Shown: piece after piece, positions 2,750 through 26,201 of the stretch
Position numbering within the stretch: the stretch's first letter is position 1
How the letters are laid out: each line of letters starts with the position of its first letter
From: Leptospirales bacterium
GTDB taxonomy: Bacteria; Spirochaetota; Leptospiria; Turneriellales; JAOUFE01
Assembly: GCA_040326155.1 (NCBI GenBank)
Contig: JBEQLE010000062.1
Coordinates: forward strand, 1-26,201
Length of the DNA: 26,201 nt
Direction: 5' to 3'
Notes under the pieces: model-generated
The model's input: only the letters and a program-made list of their open reading frames with translations
The model's database searches: none
Told to the model about the DNA's origin: nothing
Made by a program: the position numbers and the translations under genes

Positions 2750-2761
2750 AATTTAAATGCC

Positions 2762-3730: not shown

Positions 3731-3777
3731 GGTTTAAAGTATAGAAAGGTATAAAGTTGACAAGCAAAATAAATATT

Positions 3778-4353: not shown

Positions 4354-4412
4354 CTTGCACAAGAATGAGAATAATATACTTGACGACAAACAAAATTCAA
4401 ATATTTTCCCAT

Positions 4413-5636: not shown

Positions 5637-5690
5637 AAAACGCTTGCCTTTGTATTCAGAAGTGAATCCATTGCCTTTCGGAGGATTTCA

Positions 5691-6155: not shown

Positions 6156-6186
6156 ACGTTTTTTACTTTTATTTGTTTCCGGTTGA

Positions 6187-6909: not shown

Positions 6910-7115
6910 AATTAACTCTGAATCAAAGAAACCAGATCTGAAATAATTATCTAATAAACCGAGTATGCCCGCATTTTTTTGTATGGAAGACGAATTGTTG
7001 AATCTAAGGTTTGACGGTTTTCAACTTGTCTAAAAACTAAAATCCAGATCGACAATATGAACCATAAGTATGAAAACACTTTACACCGGTTTTCGTACAA
7101 CCATTATTGAATTCG

Positions 7116-8983: not shown

Positions 8984-9001
8984 TTATTATAGTTCTAATC
9001 G

Positions 9002-10273: not shown

Positions 10274-10823
10274 TATCCTGTGTTAAAATAGAACGTAACG
10301 CCGCCTCGGCGTCATTGATTACTTCAATAATTTGCATGTTTTCATCAAGGTTAAAGTCCGAATCGAGATATTTTCGAGTTTTCCCTTTATCTTTAATATC
10401 AAATTGAAAACCGCTTAATGGGGCTATACCTACTCGTATTCGAATAAATTTTTCAGATTTCAAAGCTTTAGCAATAGAACCAAGCCCGATATGATCTATA
10501 TAACTTTTTTCGCAGGCAACTTGGACGTCACCATACCCGATAGAGTAGTCATCATGAATAACAATAATATTAGCGACAGGGATGCGTAGAAAAGAAGCTA
10601 TGTAAAGAACCGCCTCACCACTCAAATCCATAAAGGTCTGCGGTTTTAGTAAAACAATTTCGTGTTTTTCAAACTCACCGGTGCCTAAAAGAGATTTCTT
10701 CTTTTTGGTTTTAATTTGAATATTGGTATTATTCGCTAATACATCAACAATTTTAAAACCAATATTGGCTCTGTTGTTCATATATCGGTCTCCGGGATTC
10801 CCGAGACCGATAATTAATTTCAT
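10212..10823 (-). CDS. pth: Peptidyl-tRNA hydrolase homologue with divergent active site
   Basis: MKLIIGLGNPG, LLKPQTFM.LSG, IHDD and RIRVGI motifs; canonical prs-rplY-pth synteny. Confidence 0.9.
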   Translation of the reverse strand: MKLIIGLGNPGDRYMNNRANIGFKIVDVLANNTNIQIKTKKKKSLLGTGEFEKHEIVLLKPQTFMDLSGEAVLYIASFLRIPVANIIVIHDDYSIGYGDVQVACEKSYIDHIGLGSIAKALKSEKFIRIRVGIAPLSGFQFDIKDKGKTRKYLDSDFNLDENMQIIEVINDAEAALRSILTQDIDDVLSRYKLGTVAKPSSAE

Positions 10824-10859
10824 ATTCGAACTCAAATTTTTCTCCTGACAAACGAGAAA

Positions 10860-11489
10860 TTATTCGCCGGAAGTTTCGTCTTTTGGTTCAGTACCCTCTG
10901 GTGTTTCTTCTTCCGTTACGGCTTCTTCATCATCGATTTTTCCACGAGTCGGTGTAGTTATGTGACAGATAATAGGATTACCTTCTGCAAGAACTTTAGC
11001 CCCTTCCGGTAAAGTCAGGTCTTCGGCATGCATGGCATCACCAAGCTGAAGTTCAGAGATATCGATGCTGATGGCAGCAGTCAAGTTTTTAGGCAAAATT
11101 TCAATTTCAATGTCGTGAGCAAACACTTCAAGTACTCCGCCCTCTTTAACCCCGATAGAACTACCTACGAGATGGATGGGAATATGGGTACGGACTTTTT
11201 CTCCATATGTAATACGGAAAAAATCCATGTGTAGAACTTCTTGAGACACAGGGTGAACCTGGTAGTCTTTAATGAATGCTTCTTCACTTTTATCGCCTAT
11301 TTCGACCGAATAAAGTTGAGATTCTGAAATACCGGCTGCTATAAGTTTTTGTACATCTTTCGCGTTAATTTTCAGCAAGTCGGTTTTCCCGTGATTGTAC
11401 ATTACAGCGGGAATATTTCCTTCTTTTCTACATAGGGCCGCTCTTTGTCCGGCCTTTCTTGGTTCAGCTTTTAATACAATTTTTTCCAT
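10860..11489 (-). CDS. rplY: 50S ribosomal protein L25/Ctc
   Basis: IPAVMY, IKDYQVHPV, LHMDF and GVKEGG motifs; acidic tail. Confidence 0.95.
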   Translation of the reverse strand: MEKIVLKAEPRKAGQRAALCRKEGNIPAVMYNHGKTDLLKINAKDVQKLIAAGISESQLYSVEIGDKSEEAFIKDYQVHPVSQEVLHMDFFRITYGEKVRTHIPIHLVGSSIGVKEGGVLEVFAHDIEIEILPKNLTAAISIDISELQLGDAMHAEDLTLPEGAKVLAEGNPIICHITTPTRGKIDDEEAVTEEETPEGTEPKDETSGE

Positions 11490-11520
11490 TTGTTACCTCT
11501 ATTTATATAGCATTTAAATA

Positions 11521-12462
11521 TTACAAAAACAATGTGCTGACGGACCGTTCGTCGTGAATTCTTAAAATGGCTTCTCCAAATAAAGAGGCCACACTCAATA
11601 CGGTCATTTTTTTCATCTGTTTTTCAGGTGAAATAAGTAAGGTGTCTGTTACTATAAGTTCTTCAATAGGAGATTTTTCAAGCCTTTCAATGGCTGGACC
11701 CGATAAAACGGCGTGAGTGGTGCCAGCTATAATTTTTGTGGCTCCGTGTTCTTTTAATGCCTGGGCGCCCTTGGCTATGGTTCCCGCTGTATCGATCATA
11801 TCGTCGATCATAATACAGGTTTTACCTTTGACTTCACCAATAATGTGCATAACTTCAGATTCATTGGCTCTTTCTCGTCTTTTATCGATAATAGCAAGGC
11901 TGCTGTTCAGGTGTTTTGCAAAAAAACGAGCTCTTTCAGCTCCACCTGAATCGGGAGAGACGATAACGGCGTCGTTAATTCCCGCTTGTTTAAAGTAATC
12001 AACCAATATGGGGGCAGAAAAAAGGTGATCAACCGGAATATCAAAAAAACCTTGTATCTGGTCGGCGTGAAGATCCATAGCCAATATCCGGTCTGCACCA
12101 ATAGCTTCGAGAGCTTTCGCTACAACTTTAGCTGAAATGGGAACCCGTGGTTCGACTTTACGATCTTGTCTTCCGTAACCATAATATGGAATAACGACAG
12201 TTATTCGGCGGGCTGATGCTCGTCGAAAAGCGTCCATCATAAGTAATAATTCCATTATGTTTTCATTAGCGGGGTAACCAGTAGATTGGATTATAAAAAT
12301 ATCCGCGCCTCGAACGTTTTCAGTAATTTTAACGCTTACTTCTCCGTCCGAAAATCGTTTAATGTCGATTTTTCCGGTATCAATACCAATAGACTCTGCA
12401 ATTTTATCGGCTAAAGGATTGTTAGAAGTGCCGGAAAATATTTTTAATATTTTATTATTCAT
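11521..12462 (-). CDS. prs: Ribose-phosphate pyrophosphokinase
   Basis: [35 protein letters not shown] and DDMIDTAGT motifs. Confidence 0.98.
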
Positions 12463-13232
12463 GAACTCACCTGAATTTCTTCTTCAACTTCTAGTAATTG
12501 TTCTTTGGAATTTATTCCGCGAAACTGGTTTGCGTCTTTCGAGAAATAAGTTCCCACAGTTTTAGTATTCTTGTTGAGTATTTTCACCATATCTGTTAGG
12601 TAATACTCTTTCTGGGAATTTTCAGCAGCAAGCTCGTCGATGCAATTCCAAAGATCGGTGTTATTAAAAATAAAGATTCCAGTGTTTACTTCATCCACTT
12701 TTTTATCAACGTCAGTTGCATCTTTTTCTTCTATAATACTTTGAATGTTTCCATTGCCATTGCGAATAATTCTTCCATATCCGGTGGGGTCATTCAGTTT
12801 TGTGCTTAACACAACTGAGGATACTCCGGATTTTGTTAAGGTTTCAAATGCCTCAGAAATAGTGTCGGGCTTAATAAAAGGGACATCACCCAGCAGTACA
12901 AGAAGGTATTGTTCGTCTTCTACGAGATGTTTTTTGGCCGATAATACAGCGTGTCCGGTTCCAAATTGTTCTATCTGTTCTGAGAACACAATTTGAATGC
13001 CTGTTACACTTTTTGCCCAGTCGGTAACGGTCTCCATGACCTGTTCTTTTCCGTAACCAACCACAACGACAATTTTTTCAAGCGAGGTTTTTTCCAGAGT
13101 TTCTAATAAATACAAGATCATCGGTTTCCCGGCGATCTTGTGAAGGACCTTCGGTAAATCGCTGTTCATTCGTGTGCCTTTACCTGCGGCGAGAATGACA
13201 GCTTGAGTTAACTTTTTTTCAGGATAGGTCAT
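12459..13232 (-). CDS. glmU: GlmU-type sugar-phosphate nucleotidyltransferase (N-terminal domain only)
   Basis: [43 protein letters not shown] and EYYLTD motifs. True start is ATG 13232; the ORF-track extension runs through the tRNA. Confidence 0.88.
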
Positions 13233-14496
13233 AGATATTAGAATATCTGGGCTGGGAGGGATCGAACCTCCGAATGCCAGTACCAAAAACTGGTGCCTTA
13301 CCACTTGGCGACAGCCCAAAGTTTGATTTAAACGTTGTCCAAAATACTCCCGGATGTTTTTTTTGCAGCATCTTGTTTACCTTTTCAATCGTTTCCGTTG
13401 TTTTACTCATTAAACGATTTCCCGCATCTTGCCCGAGGCTCAGAACGGAAAAAAAGGCAGACCCTGAACCGCTCATGGATGAAAAAACTGGTTTATCGAG
13501 GTCTATAGCTTGTAACTGCCTCGCCAGGTTTTCTTCCAGATCACGATTGAGCTGCTCCATCTCGGAATATTTTTCGAGATATACATCCCGCGCCACCCGT
13601 GTAAAATCGTTCTTTATGGTAATCTTCCCTTCTTCAAGGGGAGAAAGAACACTCCTGAAATCTTTTTCGGTCCCGACAATGTTTCGGAACTTTTGAAAGC
13701 TCAGGTCTACCTGGGAGACTAACCGATCGAATCCAAATTTTAAATCCGATAGGATAAGAATACTTGATTCGTCACCTTGTAAACTCTTTTTTGATTTGCC
13801 AAACGGATCGCTCGATGGAACGACAGGTAAGTCGAGGTTTTGAAACATTGTCTTTGTCGAAAACCCGAAAGGGGGTACCCCGATAATTCCGGCAAGGGGG
13901 GCCATGTCTTTATAGGTAGTTTCCACTTGGCCAATTCCGCTGACCAGAGCAGGGCCGTTTGAAAGAAAAAACGGGATGTCTGCTCCGAGTTTAACTGATG
14001 CGTTTCGAACTATTTGTAATAATTTAGTGTGAGTTTCCTCTTTAATAAGGGTTTTGAGGTAATCGAGTAAACCGATTAACATACCAGCGGCGTTCGAACT
14101 GCCGCCACCGAGTCCCGAAGGCGAGGGTATTCGCTTCATTAGCTTTATTTGAGGCGGTGGAATCAGATCGATTTTTTGTTTTACGTCGTTGAACTCTGGT
14201 TCCTTAGGTAAAAAAGAGGCTTCGCAAAACCATTTGTAAGCTTTATACACCAGATTTTGCTCCGGCGCTTTGTTAAAAGCCATATCCATCTGTTCAGAAC
14301 CGGAAAAAGCAGGCGGCAAATGATCTTCCCAGGAAAAGGAGAACCGGGTGTTGTTTCGATCGAAAATAACATGCAGGGTGTCGTAAAGGTCGGTGGGCAG
14401 CAAAAGGCTGACAATGTGGTGGTAGCCGTTTTGATACTGAAAGGGAATTTTCAGGCCGAAATTTATTTTTGCGGGCGTCGCATAGGTTCGTTCCAT
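13219..14496 (-). CDS. ispE: 4-diphosphocytidyl-2-C-methyl-D-erythritol kinase (enlarged; frame reads through tRNA-Gln)
   Basis: PAKINFGL, GYHHIVS, KRIPSPSGLGGGSSNAA, LGADIPF, NDF and MSGSGSAFF motifs; likely start ATG 14496. Confidence 0.9.
   Translation of the reverse strand: MERTYATPAKINFGLKIPFQYQNGYHHIVSLLLPTDLYDTLHVIFDRNNTRFSFSWEDHLPPAFSGSEQMDMAFNKAPEQNLVYKAYKWFCEASFLPKEPEFNDVKQKIDLIPPPQIKLMKRIPSPSGLGGGSSNAAGMLIGLLDYLKTLIKEETHTKLLQIVRNASVKLGADIPFFLSNGPALVSGIGQVETTYKDMAPLAGIIGVPPFGFSTKTMFQNLDLPVVPSSDPFGKSKKSLQGDESSILILSDLKFGFDRLVSQVDLSFQKFRNIVGTEKDFRSVLSPLEEGKITIKNDFTRVARDVYLEKYSEMEQLNRDLEENLARQLQAIDLDKPVFSSMSGSGSAFFSVLSLGQDAGNRLMSKTTETIEKVNKMLQKKHPGVFWTTFKSNFGLSPSGKAPVFGTGIRRFDPSQPRYSNIYDLS
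13247..13318 (-). tRNA. tRNA-Gln(TTG)
   Basis: TGGGCTGTCGCCAAGTGGTAAGGCACCAGTTTTTGGTACTGGCATTCGGAGGTTCGATCCCTCCCAGCCCAG: 7-bp acceptor stem, anticodon stem CCAGT/ACTGG with loop TTTTGGT, GTTCGA T-loop; no encoded CCA. Confidence 0.97.
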
Positions 14497-14506
14497 CTGG
14501 TGAAGG

Positions 14507-14809
14507 TCACTTTTTGTCGTCTGTTGTATCAATGCTGCGTATAAGATTCATAAGCCCCGCTGAAAAACCGAGAATAACACCGCCAAGAAGAAACCAGGGC
14601 GATGCAGTGAATTGGTGGTCCAAATACATTCCCCCCCCGAGAAAAACTCCAAACGTAATAATAAATTCAAAACCGGCCCCGGCGTGGCGCATAGAAGACT
14701 CTTTATCGTTCTTTGAATCTAGCGACACACTCTTTTTGAATCGCTCTTCATTCTGTTTTAAATTCTCAATGCGCTTTTCAATCTCTTCTTTATCTTCCTT
14801 CGAAAGCAT
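14507..14809 (-). CDS. AtpZ/AtpI-family (ATPase gene 1) small membrane protein
   Basis: GFEFIITFGVFLGGGMYLDHQFTASPWFLLGGVILGFSAG two-TM pattern (G..LD......PWF); start ATG 14809. Confidence 0.8.
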   Translation of the reverse strand: MLSKEDKEEIEKRIENLKQNEERFKKSVSLDSKNDKESSMRHAGAGFEFIITFGVFLGGGMYLDHQFTASPWFLLGGVILGFSAGLMNLIRSIDTTDDKK

Positions 14810-14897
14810 TACCGTCTGCCTACAGCTTTGACACGGCCCGACAAGCAAATTCAGTAGTTGCACTGGAATTTCATATTTCCACTGGAAGAAATTTACT

Positions 14898-15021
14898 AAG
14901 GAATACAGGAAGGGGAAGGAAGGCAGGAAGGGAGAAGAAGTTTAGACAGGATTTACAGGATTGACATGATTTAAGAAAAGATGAACAGCCAAGGTTGACC
15001 GATTTAATTCCTCTTTTCCTG
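14898..15021. repeat. Modular repeat element, locus 1 (arm A, arm B, internally deleted)
   Basis: A units (CAGGAA) at 14898-14930; B arm GACAGGATTTACAGGATTGACATGATT at 14945-14971, identical to 17440-17466; A' fragment TTCCTCTTTTCCTG at 15008-15021. Confidence 0.85.
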
Positions 15022-15154
15022 CACTAAGTAAAAACCATTTCCAAAGTCTTGAATTTCAGACCAGTAATGCAGGTTGGAGGTCTATTTATGCAAAATATAG
15101 TAAAATTTCGAAATTTTTTATTGACCTCGTACATGTTTCATTATTACATTAAGC

Positions 15155-16684
15155 ATGTTGAAATTTAGATTTATAACCACTGTTGTTTTATTAATACTTT
15201 TTTCTTTTTCTTCCAGCAAAGTAATGGCAGAAGGCGTAGAAAATGCCAGAATTATGGGGGTGGCCGACTTTTTAGTTGAGCGTGCAAATGCAAACTATAT
15301 GTATATTGTGGAAAGCAAACTGAAAAAATCGATAATATTACAAGAGTTTTTTCCAAATATTTATCGACAGTTAACATTTTCCGGTTTGACTCATCTGTTT
15401 TTAATTCCGGAAAAAGTATGGAAAGATACGATCGAAAAGGATATTGAGTTTTTAGGCGATAAGATTTCAAAAAGTATTGATACAAAGATAATCAATCCTG
15501 CTATTGAAGAAATTACAAATTTTATACAAAGGGATATTTATTCGAAGCTCGAAATATCGATTGACGGTAAAAAGTGGTGGTCTTTAGGCCTGGATGACCC
15601 GCCTGATGAATTTATGAATCAACCGGCCTACGCAGCAGTGCACAATATATTGTATGCTCCCTTAGCTCAGCTGGTGGATTTTAATATAAGAAAACAAATA
15701 GGTTTACATAATCAAACAGTCGACTTAAAGAATTTAAAAACAATAAGAGAATTCTTGCATGAAATTTCAGGATTATTAAAACAAGATGTAAATAACATGG
15801 GTGCGGTTTTGAAAAATATCAATATCAGTGTAGGTAAGCAAGCTCTGAAAAGTGAATTAATGGACATACAATTTCGTGTTATAAAAGATGAAAGTTCACT
15901 CGAGTCTAAACAGATGAGTAAACTTTTAAAAGAAGGTACAAATGTACTGAATAAGTTTTTTGGGCTTGTAGATATTTATGATTTAATAAATGAAATAAAA
16001 AGCGCAGATACCTATACCGAAAGAATGCAATATGCTCTGTTAGTACTGGAAAAAGCTATTAAGTTTGATCTTCAAGTATTTAAACCCAAAGACAGTAAAC
16101 AAAAAAATCGCGATCTGGCAAATAAAATTATGGTAGAGTTGGACAATTATAAAAAATATCTACTTCTATTTGCCCAAATGGCAGACGCAACAACAAGAGA
16201 AGAAGTAAAACAGGCTCTAAAGGCGATTACCATGCCCGATGTTAGTTTTGCCTCAGCGCGCGCTCCCGGTTTTCATATTTTCATTTCAGGATATCTCGGC
16301 GTTGCCTATGGTTATGGTCCCTTAAATATAACCGATGCATCGAAACGTACAAATTCCGGGTTTTTATTCGCCCCCGTCGGTATAGAATTGGTATGGGGTC
16401 TTGCCGGAAAATGTGGCCGTGGCTCATCGCTGGGAATATTACTTAGCCCTTTTGACTTTGGTAACCCGGTTAACACCGTGATATTTGATGACAATAAAAC
16501 ATTTACCTACACTGATATTATTTCCCCAGGTGTTTACCTGCAATGGGGTTTAAAAGATATTCCTCTTGCCATACAACTGGGTTTAAACAGACGGCCGGTA
16601 ACCGGCACCGATGTAAAAAACCACTATGAGAATCGCCTGATCATTGCGGTCACGATGGATATGCCGTTGTTTCAGCTTTATTGA
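15155..16684 (+). CDS. Hypothetical secreted/outer-membrane protein
   Basis: 509 aa with a signal peptide, a helical-looking N-terminal two thirds and a beta-strand-like C terminus ending in aromatic residues (MDMPLFQLY). Confidence 0.75.
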   Translation: MLKFRFITTVVLLILFSFSSSKVMAEGVENARIMGVADFLVERANANYMYIVESKLKKSIILQEFFPNIYRQLTFSGLTHLFLIPEKVWKDTIEKDIEFLGDKISKSIDTKIINPAIEEITNFIQRDIYSKLEISIDGKKWWSLGLDDPPDEFMNQPAYAAVHNILYAPLAQLVDFNIRKQIGLHNQTVDLKNLKTIREFLHEISGLLKQDVNNMGAVLKNINISVGKQALKSELMDIQFRVIKDESSLESKQMSKLLKEGTNVLNKFFGLVDIYDLINEIKSADTYTERMQYALLVLEKAIKFDLQVFKPKDSKQKNRDLANKIMVELDNYKKYLLLFAQMADATTREEVKQALKAITMPDVSFASARAPGFHIFISGYLGVAYGYGPLNITDASKRTNSGFLFAPVGIELVWGLAGKCGRGSSLGILLSPFDFGNPVNTVIFDDNKTFTYTDIISPGVYLQWGLKDIPLAIQLGLNRRPVTGTDVKNHYENRLIIAVTMDMPLFQLY

Positions 16685-16692
16685 GAAAAATT

Positions 16693-17004
16693 TATAAGGA
16701 AAGCAGGAAGTCAGGAAGGGAAAGAATAATACTATGGAACGGCCATCAAAAACCACGTTTTTTAATGGCTAAATACTTCAAATTATTGTCGAACGAAGCG
16801 GCATAAAAAAACCAATGGATTTTTTTATGGACTAAGGAGACAGGATTTACATGATTGGGAGATGTGGCCGGATTGGACTATGATGACTCGAGTGTCTTCT
16901 AAACGAAATTACAAAGTCTGGATCTTTAATCATGCATAATCCTGTTAATCCTGTCAAATATTCTTTTATGTTTCTTACGTCTCTTTTCCTGTAATTCTTG
17001 CTTT
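16693..17004. repeat. Modular repeat element, locus 2 (A-C-B-core-B'-A')
   Basis: A 16693-16717; double hairpin C 16742-16829; B 16839-16856; B' AATCATGCATAATCCTGTTAATCCTGTC 16928-16955; A' about 16986-17004. Confidence 0.88.
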
Positions 17005-17046
17005 GCTTTGTTTTAATTTTGAATAAAAATACTTCTAACTTTGTAT

Positions 17047-17379
17047 ATGGCCGGGTTTTTTAATAAAAAAAAGTTAATTGAAGTAAAGGACATTAACGGA
17101 GCCGTAAAGGCAGTTCCTATATTGCCAGAAAAATCGGCAATGGAGGCGATTGTCAAGGCGAAGTTAAAAATGGAAGCTTCATGTGGCGGCGAGTGCTCTT
17201 GTTCCACCTGTCATGTGTTGGTTGACCCGGCAGACCTGTCACGTCTACCCGAGCCTACCGTTGAAGAACAAGAGATGATAGATTATGCATATAACCCCCA
17301 ACACAATAGTAGACTGGCTTGCCAGATAAAACTAGATGAAAACCTGGAAGGTTTAAAACTCGAAATTGCTCATGGTTAA
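17047..17379 (+). CDS. fdx: 2Fe-2S ferredoxin (adrenodoxin/Fdx type)
   Basis: CGGECSCSTCHV and SRLACQI cysteine motifs. Confidence 0.93.
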   Translation: MAGFFNKKKLIEVKDINGAVKAVPILPEKSAMEAIVKAKLKMEASCGGECSCSTCHVLVDPADLSRLPEPTVEEQEMIDYAYNPQHNSRLACQIKLDENLEGLKLEIAHG

Positions 17380-17399
17380 TATCATTTATAAGAAACAGT

Positions 17400-17726
17400 T
17401 ATAAAGAAAGCAGGAAGCCAGGAATGGAGAAGAAGTATAGACAGGATTTACAGGATTGACATGATTAAGAGAAGAGGAATAGACGGGGCTGACCCGAGAG
17501 TCTTCTAAACGTAAGTACAAATTCTGGATCTTTAATCATGCATAATCCTGTAAATCCTGTCAAATTTTCTTTTCTTAGTTTTCACAAAAAAATCCTGCGG
17601 TTTTTTTGTGTCGCTTCGTTCGATTATATTTTAAAGTAATTTGTTTTCAAAAAGCGTGGTTTTTGAAAACCAGCTTCGTGGTATTTTTTCTATTCCTGTA
17701 ATTCCTGCCTTCTTTATAGCTAACTC
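17400..17726. repeat. Modular repeat element, locus 3 (A-B-core-B'-C'-A')
   Basis: A 17400-17424; B 17440-17466; B' 17534-17561; inverted C 17583-17670; A' 17693-17718 followed by GCTAACTCT, which also occurs at 25446. Confidence 0.9.
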
Positions 17727-17786
17727 TCGCTTTGCGCCTTCGTGGCCCTTTTCTCTTTATTCTATTTATCCATGTTCAATAATACG

Positions 17787-17862
17787 TAAGGGGTGGCTAT
17801 CGCAACCCAGCGGGTAGTGTAGAACGTGAAACGTTCGGAACGAGGGGCAGGCTTGCCCCTTA
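17787..17862. other. GC-rich three-hairpin element upstream of rpsB
   Basis: Hairpins at 17791-17808, 17822-17836 (GAACGT-GAA-ACGTTC) and 17843-17860 (AGGGGCA-GGCT-TGCCCCT). Confidence 0.55.
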
Positions 17863-17947
17863 TGTCACATCTTTTCTTGTTCTGTTATTTTTAATCATTT
17901 ACAAAACGTTTTCGGTTTGAAACTTGGTATGGTTCAAGGAGATAAAT

Positions 17948-18778
17948 GTGGCTACAATATCGATGAAAAGTTTATTAGAAGCGGGAGTACACTTTGGTCA
18001 CCAGACCAGGCGTTGGAATCCCAAAATGAAGAAATATATTTTTACGGCAAGAAACGGCATTCATATCATTAACCTGCAAAAAACAATAGGTCTTGCGAAA
18101 ACCGCATACGAAGCTATGCGCGAAATTGCCTCACAGGGCGGCAAAATTCTATTTGTTGGAACTAAAAAACAGGCCCAGTCCGAAATTAAAAGAGCCGCTG
18201 AAGAGTGCGGTATGTATTATATTAACAACCGATGGTTGGGTGGTATTTTAACAAATTTTAATACAGTGAAAAAGTCTATTCAACGTCTTCGTAAGCTTGA
18301 AGACGCTTTTGAAAAGGATACTGTTTCTCAATTGGTTAAAACCAAAAAAGAGACTCTTTTGCTTCAACGAGAGTTGAACCGATTAAGAAGATACTTAAAC
18401 GGTATTAAAGATATGACGGCTTTGCCTGACGCTCTTTTTGTTATTGACCCTGTTCGTGAGCATATTGCAATTAAAGAAGCTCGCCGAAATAACATTCCTA
18501 TATTCGCTCTTGCTGATACCAACTGCGACCCTAATCTCGTTGATTATGCAATTCCTGCTAACGACGATGCTATTCGTGCGGTTGCTTTGTTCCTTCAAAT
18601 TATGGTTGGCGCCATTGAAGAAGGAAAACAAGGCGGTGAGTTCTCTCAAGTTGAAATTGAACAAGATGATGAAAACATGGACCAAGCAGAGGCCGCCCCT
18701 GAAGGCAAAGAGACCACTAAGCTTGATGCAATTGAAGAGCTTGAAACAAAGTACGACACTGTCGAAACTGAAGATTAA
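17948..18778 (+). CDS. rpsB: 30S ribosomal protein S2
   Basis: [28 protein letters not shown] and [11 protein letters not shown] motifs; GTG start after an AAGGAGA SD. Confidence 0.98.
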
Positions 18779-18789
18779 GGAATATTAAT

Positions 18790-19377
18790 ATGGCGGTAGA
18801 TACCCAAAAGCTGAAAGAGCTGAGAAGTATGACTTCGGCTGGAATACTTGATTGCAAAAAGGCCCTGGAAGAAAACGATAACGATCTTGAAAAATCGGCT
18901 GAATACCTTCGTAAAAAAGGTATAGTAAAAGCTGTAAAAAAAATGGATCGCGAAGCCACCGAAGGCGGCATATTCTCCTATATTCATCACAACGGTAAGC
19001 TTGGTGTGTTATTACAGCTGAATTGTGAAACTGACTTTGTTGCGAAAAACGATATGTTTAAAGAACTAGGTAAGAATATCGCTATGCATATCGCTGCAAG
19101 TAACCCTGTTTATATAAGCCCTGATGAAGTACCTGAAGATATTGTTAACAAAGAAAGAGATATTCAGAAAGAGACCTTACTTAAAGAGGGTAAACCTGAG
19201 AATGTAATTGAAAAAATTCTGGAAGGGAAAATGGCTAAGTATGTAAATGAAATTTCTTTATTGAAACAAGCTTACGTGAAAGACCCGAAATCTTCCATTG
19301 AAGACTTACTTAAAGAAGGGATTTCAAAACTTGGTGAGAATATCTCTATTGGTAAATTCACCAGGTACTCTATTTAG
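18790..19377 (+). CDS. tsf: Elongation factor Ts (short form)
   Basis: LKELRSMTSAGILDCKKAL and LNCETDFVAKN motifs; follows rpsB. Confidence 0.97.
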   Translation: MAVDTQKLKELRSMTSAGILDCKKALEENDNDLEKSAEYLRKKGIVKAVKKMDREATEGGIFSYIHHNGKLGVLLQLNCETDFVAKNDMFKELGKNIAMHIAASNPVYISPDEVPEDIVNKERDIQKETLLKEGKPENVIEKILEGKMAKYVNEISLLKQAYVKDPKSSIEDLLKEGISKLGENISIGKFTRYSI

Positions 19378-19383
19378 GAAATT

Positions 19384-20139
19384 ATGTCTGAATTACCGGA
19401 GAAAGGATTCAAAAGAATTTTATTAAAACTCTCCGGTGAAGTCTTAGCCGGTAAAGACCAGTATGGTATTAACGCCTCTGTCGTTGAAAAACTGGCTGAC
19501 CAAATAATCGCAGTACATAACCTCGGTGTTGAAATAGCTATTGTTATTGGCGGCGGGAATATTTTTCGTGGTGTCAGTGGAGCCTCCAAAGGAATGGACC
19601 GCGCCACTGCCGACTATATGGGCATGATGGCTACCATCATTAATGGACTGGCATTGCTCGATTTTCTTGAAAAAAAAGGAATTGTTACCCGATTACAGTC
19701 TGCTATTGAGATAAAATCGGTCGCCGAGCCCTTCATTCGCAGAAGACTTCTTCGTCATCTTGAAAAAAAGAGAGTCGTTATTTTAGCCGGTGGAACTGGA
19801 AACCCCTATTTTACCACGGATACAACTGCAGCTCTTCGCGCTGTAGAACTTAAAACCGACATTATATTTAAAGGAACAAAAGTCGATGGGGTCTATGAAG
19901 ACGATCCTATGGAAAACCCTTCAGCTCGTCGTTATAGCAGAATCTCCTTTATGAATGCTCTTCAGCAACGATTAAAAATAATGGACTCCACCGCCTTTTC
20001 TCTTTGTATGGATAATAAAATGCCGATACTTGTTTTTGATATTGAAAATGAGAATAGTCTTATGCAAGCTGTGCTTGGAGAGTCTGTCGGTACTTTAGTT
20101 GATTCGAGAGAAGGAGCAGAGTTTTATGGAAGTTCATGA
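19384..20139 (+). CDS. pyrH: UMP kinase
   Basis: RILLKLSGE, GGGNIFRG, ADYMGMMAT and GTGNPYFTTDTTAALRA motifs. Confidence 0.98.
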   Translation: MSELPEKGFKRILLKLSGEVLAGKDQYGINASVVEKLADQIIAVHNLGVEIAIVIGGGNIFRGVSGASKGMDRATADYMGMMATIINGLALLDFLEKKGIVTRLQSAIEIKSVAEPFIRRRLLRHLEKKRVVILAGGTGNPYFTTDTTAALRAVELKTDIIFKGTKVDGVYEDDPMENPSARRYSRISFMNALQQRLKIMDSTAFSLCMDNKMPILVFDIENENSLMQAVLGESVGTLVDSREGAEFYGSS

Positions 20140-20695
20140 AGAAGTTGAACTAATTTTATCTGACGCTGAAGAGCGTATGGAAAAAACGAATAACGAACTC
20201 ATTAATGCGTTGGGTTTAATTCGTTCAGGAAGAGCTACTACCGGTCTTGTTGATGATATACGTGTGGAAGCGTATGGCGATGTCTTGCCGTTAAACCAGG
20301 TTGGGGCTATTTCTATTCCCGAAGCCAGAACTATTACCATTGATGTCTGGGATAAGGCTATTTCCCAGGATGTTGAAAAGGCCATTCAAAAGTCTGGTAG
20401 AAATTTAAACCCCCAGAATGATGGCGGTTTTATTCGTATAAATTTGCCTGACTTAACCGAAGATCGGCGTAAAGATCTGGCTAAGCTTGCAAAGCAAAAA
20501 GCCGAAGATTTTAAAGTTGCTATTCGTAATATTCGTAGAGACGCTAATGATTCACTCAAACGATTGAAAAATGAAGGTATCTCTGAAGATGAAATGCGCA
20601 CGAACCAGGACAAAGTACAATCGCTTACGGATGGAAGAATTCGTAAAATGGACGATCTCTGTAGCGCAAAAGAAAAAGAGATAATGACAGTCTAA
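20126..20695 (+). CDS. frr: Ribosome recycling factor
   Basis: IRSGRA, NPQNDG, P.LTEDRRKDL and AIRNIRRDAN motifs; start ATG 20126. Confidence 0.97.
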   Translation: MEVHEEVELILSDAEERMEKTNNELINALGLIRSGRATTGLVDDIRVEAYGDVLPLNQVGAISIPEARTITIDVWDKAISQDVEKAIQKSGRNLNPQNDGGFIRINLPDLTEDRRKDLAKLAKQKAEDFKVAIRNIRRDANDSLKRLKNEGISEDEMRTNQDKVQSLTDGRIRKMDDLCSAKEKEIMTV

Positions 20696-20698
20696 TTT

Positions 20699-21478
20699 GT
20701 GGAACCTGTCGACAATACAAACAACTCCCCGGATATGCCTTTAAATGAAGCATGTATTCCCAAACATTTGGCAATTATTATGGACGGGAATGGCCGTTGG
20801 GCGCAAGATAGAGGCTTGTCGCGCTTAGATGGACATAAGCATGGAGCGGATATTCTGGATCGTCTTTTAGATACGATACTCGAATTAAAAATTCCTTATG
20901 TTTCATTGTATGCTTTTTCTACGGAAAACTGGAAACGTCCCAAAACTGAAGTGACTGCGCTGTTTGAATTGTTGAATCGTTATTTAAAAGATCGCCTTAA
21001 TAAAATGGTGGAAAAAGGAATTTGCATGAGGGTCTCCGGCGATATACAAGGCCTCCCTTTTATAAGTAGAAATTTAGTAAACGGCGCTCTCGAAAGAACA
21101 CGAAATGGTACAAATCTTGTAGCCAACTTTTGCATTAATTATGGCAGTCGTGATGAGATTGTACACGCTGTAGAATCTTTAATTGCCGAACGTTCTTCCC
21201 ATAAAGTAAAGAAGTCGGCAAACTTGACCTGGGAAGATATTGACAGTTTTCTTTACACAAGCGGTATGCCAGGAGTAGACTTACTTATTCGCACTGGCGG
21301 TGAAAAAAGACTTTCTAACTTTTTACTGCTTCAGTCGGCTTACGCTGAAATTTACTTTACAGAAACTCTCTGGCCTGAATTCAACGAGAAAGAATTATTA
21401 GAGATTCTGCAATGGTACCAAAGCCGGGTCCGAAAATTTGGAGGACTTGAAAATTCGGAAAAGGTAAAAACCGTATGA
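20699..21478 (+). CDS. uppS: Undecaprenyl diphosphate synthase
   Basis: IPKHLAIIMDGNGRWA, YAFSTENWKRP, NYGSRDEI and IRTGGEKRLSNFLL motifs. Confidence 0.97.
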   Translation: MEPVDNTNNSPDMPLNEACIPKHLAIIMDGNGRWAQDRGLSRLDGHKHGADILDRLLDTILELKIPYVSLYAFSTENWKRPKTEVTALFELLNRYLKDRLNKMVEKGICMRVSGDIQGLPFISRNLVNGALERTRNGTNLVANFCINYGSRDEIVHAVESLIAERSSHKVKKSANLTWEDIDSFLYTSGMPGVDLLIRTGGEKRLSNFLLLQSAYAEIYFTETLWPEFNEKELLEILQWYQSRVRKFGGLENSEKVKTV

Positions 21479-22374
21479 AAGACATTTTAATAAAAATTTT
21501 AGTTGGTATAGTCGTAGCTTCTGTATATCTTTTTTCATTTCATTTTGAAGGTTATGGGTATGTAAGGTTTTATATCTTCATATTGGCCGTCATCAGTATA
21601 TGTATATTTGAACTTTTTCGTATGTACCAGAAAGATGTAACTTTTAAAGTCATGTTGCCTGCTTTTGTTTTATCATTTAGCTGGTTAACTCTTATATACG
21701 CATTGTCCCTTTCTATTTATTATAATATCGATTCTATTCCAACAGGGCTACTTCCTGTTGTTTCGGGTCTTTCTACTTTAGATGTTGTTGACATTGCTTC
21801 GATGCTACCCATACTCGCTATGTTTGCCATAGCTTATTTTGTTATTTTCAGTGAAGAATCTAAAATTCAATTAAACCTGGGCTTAACTTTTGTATCATTT
21901 TTTTATATTGCAATACCATTATCAACTGTGTTACTTCTTCGGGCTATGGAGCAAGGGGTTTTTCTACTCTGGTTTCTCAGTTTTGCGGTAGCCATGTCTG
22001 ATACGATGGGTTTTGTTTTCGGTAAACTTTTCGGAAAACATAAGGTAAAATGGACATTAAGCCCGAATAAAACCTGGGAAGGTTATATAGGTGGTTTTTT
22101 CGGACAAAGTCTAATGGTGATATTGTTTCACTACGTTGCATCTTTGCTGGGTGATGTTCCGACGCTCGGTTATGTACAACTTATATTTATTGCCGGAACG
22201 ATTTACTTTGTTTCGGTGTTGGGAGATTTAAGCGAGTCGCGATTAAAAAGAGCAGCCGGGGTAAAAGATTCCGGTACTTTTTTGCCAGGTCATGGCGGTT
22301 TTTTAGATCGAGTCGATTCGATTATATTTGCAGCGCCTTTTTTCTATTTTTTGCTTCGATATTCTTCCATGTAA
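21475..22374 (+). CDS. cdsA: Phosphatidate cytidylyltransferase
   Basis: SDTMGF..G..FGKHK, SPNKTWEG and GDLSESRLKRAAGVKDSG.FLPGHGGFLDRVDS motifs. Confidence 0.96.
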   Translation: MKDILIKILVGIVVASVYLFSFHFEGYGYVRFYIFILAVISICIFELFRMYQKDVTFKVMLPAFVLSFSWLTLIYALSLSIYYNIDSIPTGLLPVVSGLSTLDVVDIASMLPILAMFAIAYFVIFSEESKIQLNLGLTFVSFFYIAIPLSTVLLLRAMEQGVFLLWFLSFAVAMSDTMGFVFGKLFGKHKVKWTLSPNKTWEGYIGGFFGQSLMVILFHYVASLLGDVPTLGYVQLIFIAGTIYFVSVLGDLSESRLKRAAGVKDSGTFLPGHGGFLDRVDSIIFAAPFFYFLLRYSSM

Positions 22375-22380
22375 AGCAGT

Positions 22381-23517
22381 ATGAAAAAAAACAGAGTTGT
22401 AATACTAGGCGCAACCGGTTCTATTGGAGAAACCGCCCTTCGAGTTTTCAGGAATTTTCCTGAGCGATTTGAACTTTCTGGTTTTACGTATCATTCCAAT
22501 TTTGAACTGGCTGTAAAAATTCAAAAAGAGTTTCATGTAAAATATATTGTTTGCACTGCTGAGCCTTCTGAACAGGAGAAACTTCACTGGACCGGGTTAA
22601 ATTGTGAACTTTTGCATGACACCGAAGAACTTGCTCAAGTTGATTATGACAAGATTTTAATTGCCGTTGTAGGCGCAGTAGGTGTAAAACCTTGTCATGC
22701 GGCTATATTACGGGGAAAAGAAATATTATTGGCAAATAAAGAGAGTCTGGTAATGGCCGGTTCCATATTAATTTCAGATGCAAAACAATATGGGGCAAAA
22801 TTATTACCCGTCGATTCTGAACATAATAGTATTTACCGTTTAATGCATTCTGGCGCCGAATATCGTAAAATTAAAATAACTGCCAGCGGGGGAGCCCTGC
22901 GCGATTTTAATACAGAACAGATTAAAAAAGCGACCATTGTGGATGTTCTAAAACATCCCACCTGGAGTATGGGCGCCAAAATTACGGTAGATTCTGCGTC
23001 TATGGTAAACAAAGCTCTTGAAATTATGGAAGCTCATCATCTTTTTGGAATTGAGTATGAAAACCTTGGCGCGGTTATACACCCCGAAAGTTTTATTCAT
23101 GCTATGTTACAAGAGAAAGATGGAACCTGGTTTTTTCATGCTTACCGACCTGATATGGTTTACTCCATTGCTCATTGTCTATTTTATCCTGATAAATCTC
23201 CTTTAATTGAAAAAACCTCAGAAAGAGATGATCTTCCCGATATTCATTTTTTACCTATTGACGCAAAAAAATACCCGGCTTATTATATTGGTTTAGAGGC
23301 GGGAAAATTAGGGGGGGCATATCCTGCTATTTTTAACGCAGCCAATGAGGCAGCTGTTGAGGCTTTTCTTGACAAAAGAATTTCTTTTCACGAGATCTCA
23401 ACATATATAGATCGTATATTAGAGAAATCGGTGCCAGTTACTTTTTCAAGTGATTTGAATGGACTATTTGAGGCTGATCTCTGGGCTCGACGTTTGCTCC
23501 GTGAAAGTATAAAATAA
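22381..23517 (+). CDS. dxr: 1-deoxy-D-xylulose-5-phosphate reductoisomerase
   Basis: ILGATGSIG, LANKESLV, PVDSEH, HPTWSMGAKITVDSA and NAANE motifs. Confidence 0.97.
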   Translation: MKKNRVVILGATGSIGETALRVFRNFPERFELSGFTYHSNFELAVKIQKEFHVKYIVCTAEPSEQEKLHWTGLNCELLHDTEELAQVDYDKILIAVVGAVGVKPCHAAILRGKEILLANKESLVMAGSILISDAKQYGAKLLPVDSEHNSIYRLMHSGAEYRKIKITASGGALRDFNTEQIKKATIVDVLKHPTWSMGAKITVDSASMVNKALEIMEAHHLFGIEYENLGAVIHPESFIHAMLQEKDGTWFFHAYRPDMVYSIAHCLFYPDKSPLIEKTSERDDLPDIHFLPIDAKKYPAYYIGLEAGKLGGAYPAIFNAANEAAVEAFLDKRISFHEISTYIDRILEKSVPVTFSSDLNGLFEADLWARRLLRESIK

Positions 23518-23518
23518 A

Positions 23519-24637
23519 ATGGATTTTAAAGAAAATAACGAAGCTATACGAAATTATTTAGCGGAGTGTACCCACGTTGTCATTAAACTGGGAACTAATA
23601 TTTTAACTCCCCATATTGAATCTTCCGATATGAGTTATTTTAAGGGTTTGGCCCTGCAAATTAAAAAACTTGTTGAAAACGGAAAAAAAGTACTGGTTGT
23701 TAGTTCTGGAGCGGTTGGTTTTGGGAAAAAAATTAAAGATATTAAAACTGGTGAACTAAAAAAAAAGGAAACTATCGCAGAAAAACAGGCTTTTGCGTCC
23801 ATGGGGCAGGGGCTCTTAATTGATACATATCGAGAAAATTTTCAAACGGCCAACCTTGAGACCGGTCAGATTCTGGTGTCGCTCTCTGATTTTTTAAGTC
23901 GAAATCATTATAAAAATTTAAAACGTACGCTTGACCAGCTGATGGAGTGGGGAGCTATTCCTGTCATCAATGAAAATGACGCAATTACAGTCGAAGGTCT
24001 GAAATTTGGAGATAACGATACATTGTCCGCTTTTATAGCAGGCATGTACCCCCAGAGCTTGTTAATTATTCTAACGACAGTGGATGGATTTTATCTCGAC
24101 GACAAAAAAGTAGACTTAGTCACCCGTTTAGATGAAACTCATTTTGCCGCAGCCGGAGGCGCTACAGCAGGTGGCATCGGGGGAATGAAAACAAAGCTTC
24201 ACGCTGCTAAAAAGATTTTGTTGTCTGGGCAGGCCATGAATATTGCTTCGGGCGAACATCCTGCAGTAATTGAAGAAATTATTCAAGCGCAAAACGTAGG
24301 CACCTGGTTTTATCCTTTGATATCATCGTCGCTTAGTTTTCGAAAAAGGTGGCTGGTACACCATCGTCATGTCATGGGTAAAATTACAATTGATTCTGGT
24401 GCCAGAGAAGCTCTAAAAGACGGCTCGGCCTCTTTGCTTCTAGTTGGGGTGTTAAGTGTCGAAGGGAATTTTTCAGCCGGTTCGGTAATTGAAATTGTTG
24501 AAGCGAACAAAAATGAGTTGGCTCGCGGGATCGCCGCATACTCCAGTGACGAAATACATGAGATGCTTGAAGTAAATGAGAAACGACGCGGCGTTTACGT
24601 TGTTCACCGCGATAATATGATTATGACCAACGAATAA
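23519..24637 (+). CDS. proB: Glutamate 5-kinase with PUA domain
   Basis: VVIKLGT, VSSGAV, PVINEND, FGDNDTLSA, GGMKTKL and C-terminal VVHRDNM motifs. Confidence 0.96.
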   Translation: MDFKENNEAIRNYLAECTHVVIKLGTNILTPHIESSDMSYFKGLALQIKKLVENGKKVLVVSSGAVGFGKKIKDIKTGELKKKETIAEKQAFASMGQGLLIDTYRENFQTANLETGQILVSLSDFLSRNHYKNLKRTLDQLMEWGAIPVINENDAITVEGLKFGDNDTLSAFIAGMYPQSLLIILTTVDGFYLDDKKVDLVTRLDETHFAAAGGATAGGIGGMKTKLHAAKKILLSGQAMNIASGEHPAVIEEIIQAQNVGTWFYPLISSSLSFRKRWLVHHRHVMGKITIDSGAREALKDGSASLLLVGVLSVEGNFSAGSVIEIVEANKNELARGIAAYSSDEIHEMLEVNEKRRGVYVVHRDNMIMTNE

Positions 24638-24657
24638 TATTTTTAAGGAAGAAACAC

Positions 24658-25185
24658 ATGCCATTAATTAAAAAACTACTCATTGCCATACTTGGTACCA
24701 TGGCACTCTTTATGTTCGTCTCTTTATTCTTAGAGTCACAATGGGAAATTAAAAGAGAGATCGTCGTTGAAGCGTCTAAAGAAAAAGTATTCCCCTTAAT
24801 AAACAGTCCAAGAAACCATGCCAAATGGACTCCCTGGGATAGGAATTCGGATATAACAATCGTGTATTCTTTTGAAGGACCGGAAACCGGCAAAAACTCT
24901 GCCGTTATATGGAATGGGGCAAACACCAAACCGGGAAAACGAGTCATAACGAAAAGTGTCTTAAATGAAAAAGTAGAGTATATGATTTATCTCGATAATA
25001 AATTTTCAGCGCGCGGAGAGTTAGTACTTGAAACAGTTGAAAAAGGGACCAGGGTTACCTGGCGCGACTACGGAGACCTTGGCTGGAATCTCATGGGTCG
25101 CTTGATCGCCTCAAGTGCTAACGAACAAATCGGCTACGCCTTCGATAAGGGACTAATGAAGTTAAAAGTATTGGCTGAAAAGTGA
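24658..25185 (+). CDS. SRPBCC/polyketide cyclase-family protein with N-terminal TM helix
   Basis: IKREIVVEASKEKVF, W.PW, GTRVTW and FDKGLMKLK patterns. Confidence 0.85.
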   Translation: MPLIKKLLIAILGTMALFMFVSLFLESQWEIKREIVVEASKEKVFPLINSPRNHAKWTPWDRNSDITIVYSFEGPETGKNSAVIWNGANTKPGKRVITKSVLNEKVEYMIYLDNKFSARGELVLETVEKGTRVTWRDYGDLGWNLMGRLIASSANEQIGYAFDKGLMKLKVLAEK

Positions 25186-25203
25186 CAAAAGAAGAAGAGT
25201 ATA

Positions 25204-25471
25204 GACAGGATTGACATGATTTACAGGATTGGGAGAAGAAGCTGGTTTATATTAAAGGTCATGTTTAACATGGTTTTAAAATAATAGTATGTGTAGATTT
25301 GCAAAGATATTATGTATTATAAGTAATTATTCGAAATTCAGTCTCCTCTTCATTTCTTACATGTCAATCCTGTAAATCCTGTCAAAATTTCTTTTTCTCC
25401 GGTTCCTCTTTTCCTGTATTTCCTGTATTTCCTGCCTTCCTTGTAGCTAACTCTTTCTTGCTTTCCTTATA
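25204..25471. repeat. Modular repeat element, locus 4 (B-core2-B'-A'-A')
   Basis: B GACAGGATTGACATGATTTACAGGATT 25204-25230; B' 25360-25383; A' (TTCCTGTAT)2TTCCTGCCTTCC 25411-25440; second A' TTCTTGCTTTCCTTATA 25455-25471. Confidence 0.88.
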
Positions 25472-25478
25472 AAAATAG

Positions 25479-25510
25479 TTGACAAGTCTGCATAATCTAT
25501 GCATACTTGT
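25479..25510 (+). promoter_or_regulatory. sigma70-like promoter with overlapping palindromic operator for vapBC
   Basis: TTGACA (25479-25484), 17 bp, CATACT (25502-25507); inverted repeat ACAAGTCTGCATA-atc-TATGCATACTTGT at 25482-25510 with one mismatch. Confidence 0.75.
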
Positions 25511-25514
25511 ATGT

Positions 25515-25703
25515 ATGAGAACGACTTTGGTTATAGACGATGATCTCATGGAAAAAGCAAGTAAGCTTACCCATATTAAAAGTAAAACTGCCTTAATACA
25601 TGAAGGGTTAAAAGCGTTAATTATAAGAGAAAGCAGCCAGCGCCTTGCCCTGCTTGGTGGCACCGAAAAAAATTTAAAAGATGTAATCAGGCGCCCCGCT
25701 TGA
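25515..25703 (+). CDS. vapB: VapB-family antitoxin
   Basis: MRTTLVIDDDLMEKA..LT.IKSKTALIHEGLKALI...LALLGGTE; TTGA overlap with a PIN gene. Confidence 0.9.
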   Translation: MRTTLVIDDDLMEKASKLTHIKSKTALIHEGLKALIIRESSQRLALLGGTEKNLKDVIRRPA

Positions 25704-26059
25704 CTCTGGTTGATACGTCAGTCTGGATTGACCATTTCAGAAATACGAATGCAAAACTTGTGGAGCTGCTCCAAAATTTTGAAGTGTTGATTCATCCAAT
25801 GGTTCTTGGTGAAATTGCCTGCGGTAATTTGCAAAATCGAGATGAATTATTAACCTTACTGGGCCAACTGCCTGTAGCAGAAGAAGCGGCCCAATCTGAA
25901 ATTTTTACCTTCATAGAGAACAACCGTCTTTACGGGAAAGGACTGGGTTATGTCGATATAGCGCTTTTAGTCTCAGCGCTTATAAGCCGAGTAGAACTGT
26001 TCACACTGGACAATAGACTTCAAAAGGCCTGGGAAAAACTACGTAAAAAAATGGTGTAA
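25700..26059 (+). CDS. vapC: VapC PIN-domain toxin
   Basis: LVDTSVWIDHFR, HPMVLGEIACG, GLGYVD and LFTLD..L PIN motifs. Confidence 0.92.
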   Translation: MTLVDTSVWIDHFRNTNAKLVELLQNFEVLIHPMVLGEIACGNLQNRDELLTLLGQLPVAEEAAQSEIFTFIENNRLYGKGLGYVDIALLVSALISRVELFTLDNRLQKAWEKLRKKMV

Positions 26060-26093
26060 AATACACGGGGCAAGAAGGGAAAAGATTAGAATC

Positions 26094-26201
26094 GACAGGA
26101 TTGACATGATTTACAGGATTGGGGGAAGAAGCTGGTTTATATTAAAGGTCATGTTTAACATGGTTTTAAAATAATAGTATGTGTAGATTTGCAAAGATAT
26201 T
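26094..26201. repeat. Modular repeat element, locus 5 (direct copy of the start of locus 4; truncated by window end)
   Basis: 108 nt identical to 25204-25311 except one base (25234 A vs 26124 G). Confidence 0.95.

Follow-up and report, generated by a model that had tools for sequence, protein, structure and literature searches.

The window analysed here is the whole of contig JBEQLE010000062.1 from a Leptospirales bacterium, a stretch of 26,201 nucleotides (nt) and one of the 171 contigs of a 4.26-Mb assembly (39.6% G+C, 94.7% complete). It carries five blocks of repeats in which arrays of short tandem units are paired with inverted copies around a variable core. We propose that these five loci are lineage-specific hairpin repeats that contain no gene, and that they are probably non-autonomous derivatives of elements composed of such arrays together with a gene for a GxxExxY protein. 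Each of the array types elsewhere frames a GxxExxY gene of about 125 residues, and derivation from these gene-carrying elements is therefore the most likely origin of the window elements. By analogy, the window elements would most likely relate to them as repetitive extragenic palindromic (REP) doublets forming hairpins (REPINs) do to RAYT genes, or as MITEs (miniature transposable elements with inverted repeats) do to insertion sequences. In what follows G000 denotes the genome of the window, G001-G003 three relatives of the same family, C with a number a contig, and L with a number a single metagenome or viral locus.

The repeats are made of two kinds of arm. B arms consist of two or three tandem 9-mers of the form NACAKGATT, and A arms of CAGGAA units spaced 8-9 nt apart. 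An 18-mer representing two tandem B units gave 10 matches in the window at up to 2 mismatches and 0 matches in all 100 shuffles of the sequence, and a 12-mer of the CAGGAA type gave 5 matches at up to 1 mismatch against a shuffle mean of 0.09; the same motif searches found neither arm in positions 1-14897. Direct reading of the sequence and a repeat finder both show the arms nested as A(B(core)B')A' at 16684-17010 and 17391-17735. These two loci share core 1 (98 nt, 87% identical, direct orientation), core 2 is common to 25192-25311 and 26082-26201 (120 nt, 96% identical, direct orientation), and a module C of 84 nt at 16746-16829 has an inverted second copy at 17583-17666 that is 80% complementary. 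The parts are located as follows.

Arm B matches: 14945, 16839, 16938 (-), 17440, 17544 (-), 25204/25213, 25366 (-) and 26094/26103
Arm A matches: 14918, 16698, 17405, 25429 (-) and 25455 (-)
Locus 1, 14898-15026: decayed composite with A at 14899-14931, B at 14945-14971 (three 9-mers) and a short core; degenerate remnants of B' and A' at about 14998-15026, read directly from the sequence
Locus 2, 16684-17010: complete nested palindrome with A at 16696-16721, inserted module C at 16746-16829, B at 16839-16856, core 1 at 16857-16937, B' at 16938-16955 and A' at 16981-17010
Locus 3, 17391-17735: complete nested palindrome with A at 17405-17428, B at 17440-17466, core 1 at 17467-17543, B' at 17544-17561, inverted module C at 17583-17666 and A' at 17688-17721
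Locus 4, 25186-25475: B at 25204-25230, core 2 at 25231-25365, B' at 25366-25383 and A' at 25406-25442; a second outer A'-like end at 25455-25473; left A arm absent
Locus 5, 26082-26201: B at 26094-26120 and the start of core 2; the contig end cuts the element
Module C copy, 16746-16829 (+): independent repeat family, inserted in loci 2 and 3

Motif searches with shuffles, reading of the sequence and the repeat finder thus agree with an earlier note on this DNA that the five loci are assembled from common parts, and arm A, arm B, the nesting, two local cores and module C all lie where it had placed them. Its description of the loci needs correcting on three points: locus 1 is a whole, decayed element and not just its left half, the left A arm is missing from locus 4, and locus 5 is cut by the contig end. 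The two interchangeable cores that it described are a property of the window; many cores exist genome-wide, and cores 1 and 2 are almost private to the window contig. Module C, which it had taken for an optional part of the element, is instead a separate and more abundant repeat family, with 74 BLAST hits on many contigs of the genome, often in tandem. The DNA of locus 3 folds as a single nested hairpin of -64.1 kcal/mol (z -8.9), and the fold of locus 4 is weaker (z -2.9).

The window loci belong to a family dispersed over the genome. With a looser pattern, 51 loci with B arms were found on 25 of the 171 contigs and no B arm was found in the reversed genome; with a strict pattern there are 67 arms on 24 contigs, and the A terminus AAGGAARGCAGGAA occurs 69 times. 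The usual layout is an outer purine-rich A array, a B array, a variable core, B' and A'. Single arms account for 37 of the 75 clusters given by the strict pattern, and most of the composites are hairpins that stand alone. The family is intergenic: when gene positions were taken from a crude gene call (89% coding), 50 of the 51 B loci did not overlap any open reading frame (ORF) of at least 150 amino acids (aa). It is also confined to this lineage among the relatives searched, a set of 41 related genomes that counts G000. The B 18-mer is present in two of them, G000 (66 matches) and G013 (13 matches), which is of a different family, and the A 14-mer, found 69 times in G000, occurs at most once in any of the other 40.

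Beyond the relatives, a 24-mer version of the B pattern was matched at no fewer than 124 loci across many phyla, against about 0.15 expected by chance according to our own estimate. By their record titles, the matches listed include Acidobacteriota, Chloroflexota, Verrucomicrobiota, Bacteroidota, Planctomycetota and Chlamydiota, together with Gamma- and Betaproteobacteria, metagenome-assembled genomes of Desulfobacterota type and the archaeal genus Methanoperedens. These cross-phylum loci are typically short palindromes. For the 124 loci listed, the family matches of 246 flanking ORF fragments are mostly to ordinary metabolic and housekeeping genes, and gyrA, DHFR, argG and chorismate synthase are among the neighbours; two of the fragments matched PDDEXK_3. 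Viral DNA carries the B pattern too: 18 viral contigs contain 20 stretches with it, and arrays of a different unit class often adjoin it directly. In five of these viral loci (L266, L267, L269, L270 and L277) a NACAGGATT array adjoins arrays of CGCGGAG, CGCGGAT or CACAGAG type; compound arms such as A plus B are therefore not peculiar to G000.

The link to a protein family comes from the genes that the arrays enclose. The earlier note had stated that ACAGGATT-type arms flank GxxExxY-family genes in other bacteria, and exactly this 9-mer does frame such genes in G013 and in an Acidobacteriota chromosome; to infer a trans-acting enzyme family is therefore reasonable. In both cases, on contig C24 of G013 and in the Acidobacteriota chromosome (G043), the framing arrays are of the NACAGGATT type, and a B unit adjoins the GxxExxY gene in L014 and L058. 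At least one GxxExxY (PDDEXK_3, PF13366) gene was found in 11 of the 41 relatives, and in five relatives other than G013 inverted arrays built of different 9-mers enclose the gene. Framing was scored by comparing the left and right 160-nt flanks of each gene and taking the highest-scoring inverted repeat without gaps, with a cut-off of 13. A score of at least 13 was reached in 11 of 15 genome loci and in none of 59 shifted controls, whose maximum was 11. An alignment of GxxExxY proteins was used to find 80 metagenome loci, 69 of them with enough flank, and 40 of these 69 reached the cut-off against 0 of 57 controls.

The sequence of the unit follows the clade of the protein. On a quick maximum-likelihood tree of 93 proteins, with five unit classes assigned to 42 labelled rows, unit class changes 8 times, compared with a minimum of 19 and a mean of 23 in 300 shuffles of the labels; since kin share unit labels, this result shows linkage between gene and unit and not recognition of one by the other. 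G000 has a single GxxExxY gene, at C126:27686-28060 (TIGR04256, 128.6 bits). It falls in the A-type clade, where the nearest row is the metagenome locus L238 (53% identity, Shimodaira-Hasegawa-like approximate likelihood ratio 93), which has an A-type frame. The gene also lies in the densest cluster of A arrays: a region of about 800 nt around it contains 5 of the 69 A termini. Arrays of another unit, CACAGAG, number 153 in G041, 21 in G013 and 6 in G026, each of which has a GxxExxY gene beside such arrays, and there are none in G000 and G021, neither of which has one so placed.

One module of this kind was found in an occupied and an empty state. In G013 a module of about 450 nt, made of an array, a GxxExxY gene and a second array, sits between two convergent genes that are about 6 nt apart in its relative G009. 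The comparison of G009 with G013 also turned up an additional stretch of about 180 nt, one gene away from the module site, in which there is a B array without a gene.

An AlphaFold model of the GxxExxY protein (mean predicted local distance difference test, pLDDT, 95) has its best structural matches among PD-(D/E)XK nucleases, namely the nuclease domain of BpuSI (Z 8.3, root mean square deviation 2.5, 94 residues), followed by Cas4 SSO0001 (Z 8.0). These Z values are middling, and what the predicted structure shows is the fold class only, that of a PD-(D/E)XK nuclease with a conserved D...ExK. In 39 GxxExxY sequences the G, G, L, E, Y, D and E residues are invariant; D68 and E78 are invariant and K80 is nearly so. 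A search of solved structures by sequence gave no relevant match. PF13366 was entered as 'Unknown', with 'multiple transfers', in a 2012 survey of PD-(D/E)XK families (PMC3424549). In a literature search of main texts we found no description of the pairing of GxxExxY genes with arrays, the papers retrieved for PDDEXK_3, PF13366 and TIGR04256 do not, as far as their accessible text goes, concern repeats, and 17-nt versions of the B motif matched no paper. The four-helix-bundle partner PF05635 has no match in G000 and none among the 246 flanking ORF fragments of the 124 cross-phylum loci listed.

From this body of sequence evidence we infer that the nuclease would recognise the tandem units and copy or move the arrays in trans. 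The composite found in the window could have arisen when the loop of an A-type hairpin acquired a B-type hairpin; the A plus B composite would then have multiplied, and the third repeat, C, would later have been inserted into two of the copies. The 509-aa gene, the ferredoxin gene (fdx) and the vapBC pair that stand between the window loci would be bystanders at insertion-tolerant operon borders rather than cargo.

Several observations weigh against such a derivation. No framing repeat was detected for 29 of the 69 metagenome GxxExxY genes, and the covariation of unit and clade could be plain co-inheritance of a gene with its flanks. Only 2 of the 124 cross-phylum B loci listed have a GxxExxY gene within 400 nt, there is none within 600 nt of any of the 20 viral stretches, and genome G042 has the B palindrome and no PF13366 match. 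In G000 itself, the A arrays around the GxxExxY gene depart from the canonical layout of forward array, gene and reverse array, and the gene in the nearest row of the tree, L238, carries one internal stop codon. A GxxExxY gene of the B clade was not found in G000, at 94.7% completeness, despite the 66 B arms; the mover of these arrays may have been lost or may be missing from the assembly. Similarity between copies is only about 75-90%, so any spread is not recent, and the window's own copies offered no case of insertion polymorphism. The element ends, (T)AT followed by AAGGAAGG, are palindromic, so that a target-site duplication is not definable, and a TA duplication is indistinguishable from a longer palindromic end without an empty site. 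Finally, the literature search returned no biochemical work on the GxxExxY family.

It is unlikely, in our judgement, that the repeats are simply cis elements kept by the host, serving to terminate or stabilise transcripts, to insulate operon borders or to provide small RNAs, with no present link to a nuclease or to mobility. Their position suits such a role, being strictly intergenic and at operon borders. The 51 B loci lie in 20 tandem, 14 convergent and 13 divergent gene gaps, with 4 at contig edges, and the baseline comprises 2415 tandem, 633 convergent and 633 divergent gene pairs; 27 of the 47 classifiable loci are thus between convergent or divergent genes, compared with 34% of all gene pairs. 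These counts indicate that the elements favour operon borders and not 3' ends in particular, and the near-equal use of divergent and convergent gaps (13 vs 14) fits a terminator poorly. The stability of locus 3, far above that of shuffled sequence (z -8.9), also speaks for a structural role in cis. In 12 arm pairs of the family the two arms were never of the same variant type (0/12), and these systematic mismatches, at 3-10 of 27 positions, are more in keeping with an element that has two different ends than with a stem selected to pair perfectly. Also against a host function, many phyla and one archaeal genus share the sequence of the unit and not just its pairing, and 39 of the 41 related genomes have no B arrays and 40 of 41 no A arrays.

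A small-RNA role draws on one further match. The inner hairpin of locus 3, 17441-17614 (+), matches the Rfam family NsiR8 (RF02593) over its full length and below threshold, scoring 30.8 bits where the gathering score is 61 (E 0.006 when 3 kb were searched). In Nostoc, NsiR8 is a small RNA of 171 nt specific to heterocysts, and a Northern blot verified that it is transcribed (PMC4734099). The score is well below threshold and long hairpins of this kind also match plant microRNA models, and we read both sets of sub-threshold hits as generic long-hairpin matches. The arms of the NsiR8 consensus also have a 9-nt period, so that an array hairpin may be the origin of this cyanobacterial RNA as well. 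At gathering thresholds the only Rfam match across the window is a tRNA at 13247-13318 (-). A regulatory or small-RNA role in cis may still apply and would be compatible with an origin from GxxExxY-array elements. Two other candidates were dropped: the idea that the arms act as a GGA decoy of the CsrA type, on the argument that in the hairpin the complement of the GGA-rich arm pairs with it and that an archaeon has the motif as well, and a likeness of the 9-mer to a DnaA box or a promoter -35 element, which is unsupported.

The earlier note had read the repeats as a gene-cassette or recombination system, in which a recombinase or nuclease acting in trans would use the palindromes as its sites and insert, excise or shuffle the small genes that they enclose, much as with integron attC sites or pdif modules; we regard this as quite unlikely. 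The genes concerned are the following.

15155-16684 (+): flanked gene, 509 aa, no Pfam or NCBIfam match; outside the element
17041-17379 (+): flanked gene, 2Fe-2S ferredoxin (fdx), Fer2 domain; outside the element
17924-25185 (+): nine-gene block of rpsB, tsf, pyrH, frr, uppS, cdsA, dxr, proB and an SRPBCC gene; repeat-free
25479-26059 (+): flanked vapB (25479-25703) and vapC (25700-26059), VapB_antitoxin and PIN domains

In this order, by Pfam, the 509-aa gene, the 2Fe-2S ferredoxin, the rpsB-SRPBCC block and vapBC follow one another, with elements placed exactly at both ends of the block. What supports a cassette system is, first, the strong clustering of the B loci: 11 of 26 same-contig gaps are shorter than 2.3 kb, although loci are on average about 83 kb apart. 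The 11 short intervals hold vapBC twice, yefM-yoeB, a ribbon-helix-helix (RHH) gene, the ferredoxin, the 509-aa gene, a metallo-beta-lactamase (MBL)-fold gene and several small family-less genes, so that toxin-antitoxin pairs are frequent among the genes bracketed by elements. In the window, vapBC sits between two near-identical core-2 elements in direct orientation (96% identical over 120 nt). GxxExxY genes are themselves cassette-like, being framed by arrays and having an empty site. The same 11 intervals, however, also hold guaB (IMP dehydrogenase) and a 698-aa aldolase/dehydrogenase, the conserved nine-gene housekeeping block is equally 'bracketed', and across phyla B arrays flank ordinary genes, which overturns the claim that the repeats occur only around accessory genes.

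The comparison with relatives bears on the same question. In line with the note's reading, neither the 509-aa gene nor fdx nor vapBC neighbours the rpsB block in G001-G003, and ferredoxin homologues of 46-51% identity are located elsewhere in these genomes, whereas the rpsB-SRPBCC block between the elements is syntenic in all three (3/3); the gaps at its ends measure 3-386 nt there and lack such repeats. This loss of synteny is weak evidence, because G001-G003 are distant, family-level kin (RpsB 73-77% identical, about 75%) in which synteny outside operons is expected to be lost anyway. Moreover, each window gene lies between two separate complete palindromes and not between one pair of arms, and single arms and lone hairpins make up most of the family. 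The modular family is real, and the clustering, the toxin-antitoxin content and the direct repeats around vapBC lend the cassette reading some support. As a general rule it fails, and capture, inversion or shuffling of genes found no support; non-autonomous repeats dispersed over the genome account for the observations better than cassettes of the integron kind.

That the elements are MITEs of an ordinary insertion sequence, with the A termini as inverted repeats of a catalogued DDE element and a merely coincidental GxxExxY link, is very improbable: their long terminal inverted arms, their variable internal regions (as in MITE families) and their ends, which often read (T)AT before AAGGAAGG and AT(A) after CCTTCCTT and are compatible with a TA target, would all suit it, but a transposase domain is absent from all 15 ORFs that lie between paired elements (where Zn_ribbon_IS1595, weakly matched at E 0.0048, is the only hint) and was not found in the 32 ORFs of the window, Y1 transposase (RAYT, PF01797) has 0 matches in G000 while control genomes do match, blastn of locus 3 against 72,556 plasmid records gave no match, and an A-type array frames a GxxExxY gene in a metagenome contig.

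Further observations concern the repeat family elsewhere in G000. The window contig breaks within locus 5 at 26201, and C51:1-66 opens with an A' arm 91% identical to that of locus 4; C51 may continue the window contig because of this resemblance. Repeats of this family appear to cause assembly breaks. At the starts of two other contigs (C35:1-263 and C98:1-228) B' and B arms alternate head to tail with a period of about 140 nt and two conserved spacers; this could represent a satellite-like array, or else a repeat that collapsed where the assembly broke. Elements at C28:6093, C106:12422, C125:18877, C128:13202 and C138:46858 directly follow near-identical 3' ends of genes; by our own reading of the flanks, these would encode the final beta-strand of outer-membrane proteins that are paralogues, and they finish in F-stop. 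The module C family, of about 84-110 nt, has terminator-like hairpins and is tandem at, for example, C120:15888-16113 and several sites on C108. The genome holds four tyrosine recombinase (PF00589) genes; one, at C106:5242-5751 (+), ends about 130 nt before an A-B half element at C106:5932-6010 and has no array beside it, and by a rough estimate one such adjacency in four is within chance.

Elsewhere in the window, a gene for a BrnT-family toxin lies at the left end, 106-615 (-), and mechanical ORF calls run across the tRNA gene at 13247-13318 (-). A G+C-rich stretch of about 33 nt at 17790-17822, just upstream of rpsB, matches no Rfam family and recurs with 93-94% identity at C84:47408-47440 and C92:8470-8497; a look-alike of it lies to the right of the GxxExxY region, at about C126:28440-28490.

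If the derivation from GxxExxY-array elements is right, it would give a function to the orphan family PF13366, and it would explain intergenic tandem-repeat hairpins from spirochaete-like bacteria to Acidobacteriota, Chloroflexota, Verrucomicrobiota and Methanoperedens. The match of unit to clade suggests a simple, possibly programmable, rule of protein-DNA recognition. More tentatively, and with considerable doubt, GxxExxY genes and their arrays might constitute an undescribed class of prokaryotic mobile element, with a minimal nuclease, a clade-specific code of 9-mers and a spread across phyla that is partly carried by viruses; G000 would then represent a burst of 'two-key' gene-less derivatives, in which arrays of two nuclease clades are nested in one hairpin. 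Copies piled up at operon borders would promote the exchange of small genes between them, toxin-antitoxin pairs foremost, and cassette behaviour would be a side effect of the repeats. For annotation, such hairpins mark breaks of synteny and the ends of contigs, and there is a risk of taking them for cassette sites or small RNAs.

Among known systems, MITEs, the bacterial interspersed mosaic elements (BIMEs) of E. coli, the Correia elements of Neisseria and the pneumococcal BOX elements are modular, hairpin-forming intergenic elements with inverted arms, interchangeable modules and nesting. The repeats described here are likewise modular, non-coding and nested; unlike these elements they have arms made of tandem units, and no parent transposase element was found. 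The attC cassettes of integrons resemble them as imperfect palindromes lying between single genes in one orientation, with toxin-antitoxin genes common. In contrast to attC sites, the elements here end in AAGGAAGGCAGGAA rather than in a GTTRRRY-type core, which agrees with the earlier statement that attC and dif geometry is absent, although no search for attC or dif motifs was made; there is no integrase in the window, copies are scattered singly over 25 contigs, and the sequence of the arms, not structure alone, is kept across phyla. Equally, as the earlier note had it, they are no clustered regularly interspaced short palindromic repeat (CRISPR) array, being inverted pairs with variable cores, and a scan of the 32 window ORFs confirmed its statement that transposase, integrase and cas domains are lacking there.

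A closer parallel in form is offered by the GGGAATC heptamer arrays of Xanthomonas campestris and X. axonopodis and the GGGGA(C/T)T arrays of Nostoc (Rehm et al. 2015, PMC4692102). They too are dispersed and mostly intergenic, and include convergent pairs capable of forming stem-loops, of which 70 and 75 were reported (PMC4692102). The authors read these arrays as formers of G-quadruplexes, without a general link to mobile elements, and the term 'nuclease' does not appear in the text of that paper. In our elements, unlike these, the unit is not G-rich, the arms are compound (A plus B) and a partner gene family has been identified.

The REP/REPIN-RAYT systems of Pseudomonas and enterobacteria (PMC3116915, PMC3337134) share with our family short palindromic intergenic repeats in tens to hundreds of copies, gene-less repeats accompanied by one or few small enzyme genes flanked by inverted repeats, the pairing of repeat sequence with enzyme clade and persistence in single lineages. 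The partner in our case is a PD-(D/E)XK nuclease of about 125 aa and not a Y1 HUH transposase, and the arms are tandem units of 6-9 nt that extend over 18-90 nt rather than a single palindrome of 20-40 nt. Finally, REPINs and RAYTs are described as mostly vertically inherited (PMC3116915, PMC3337134), whereas the unit described here recurs across phyla and on viral contigs.

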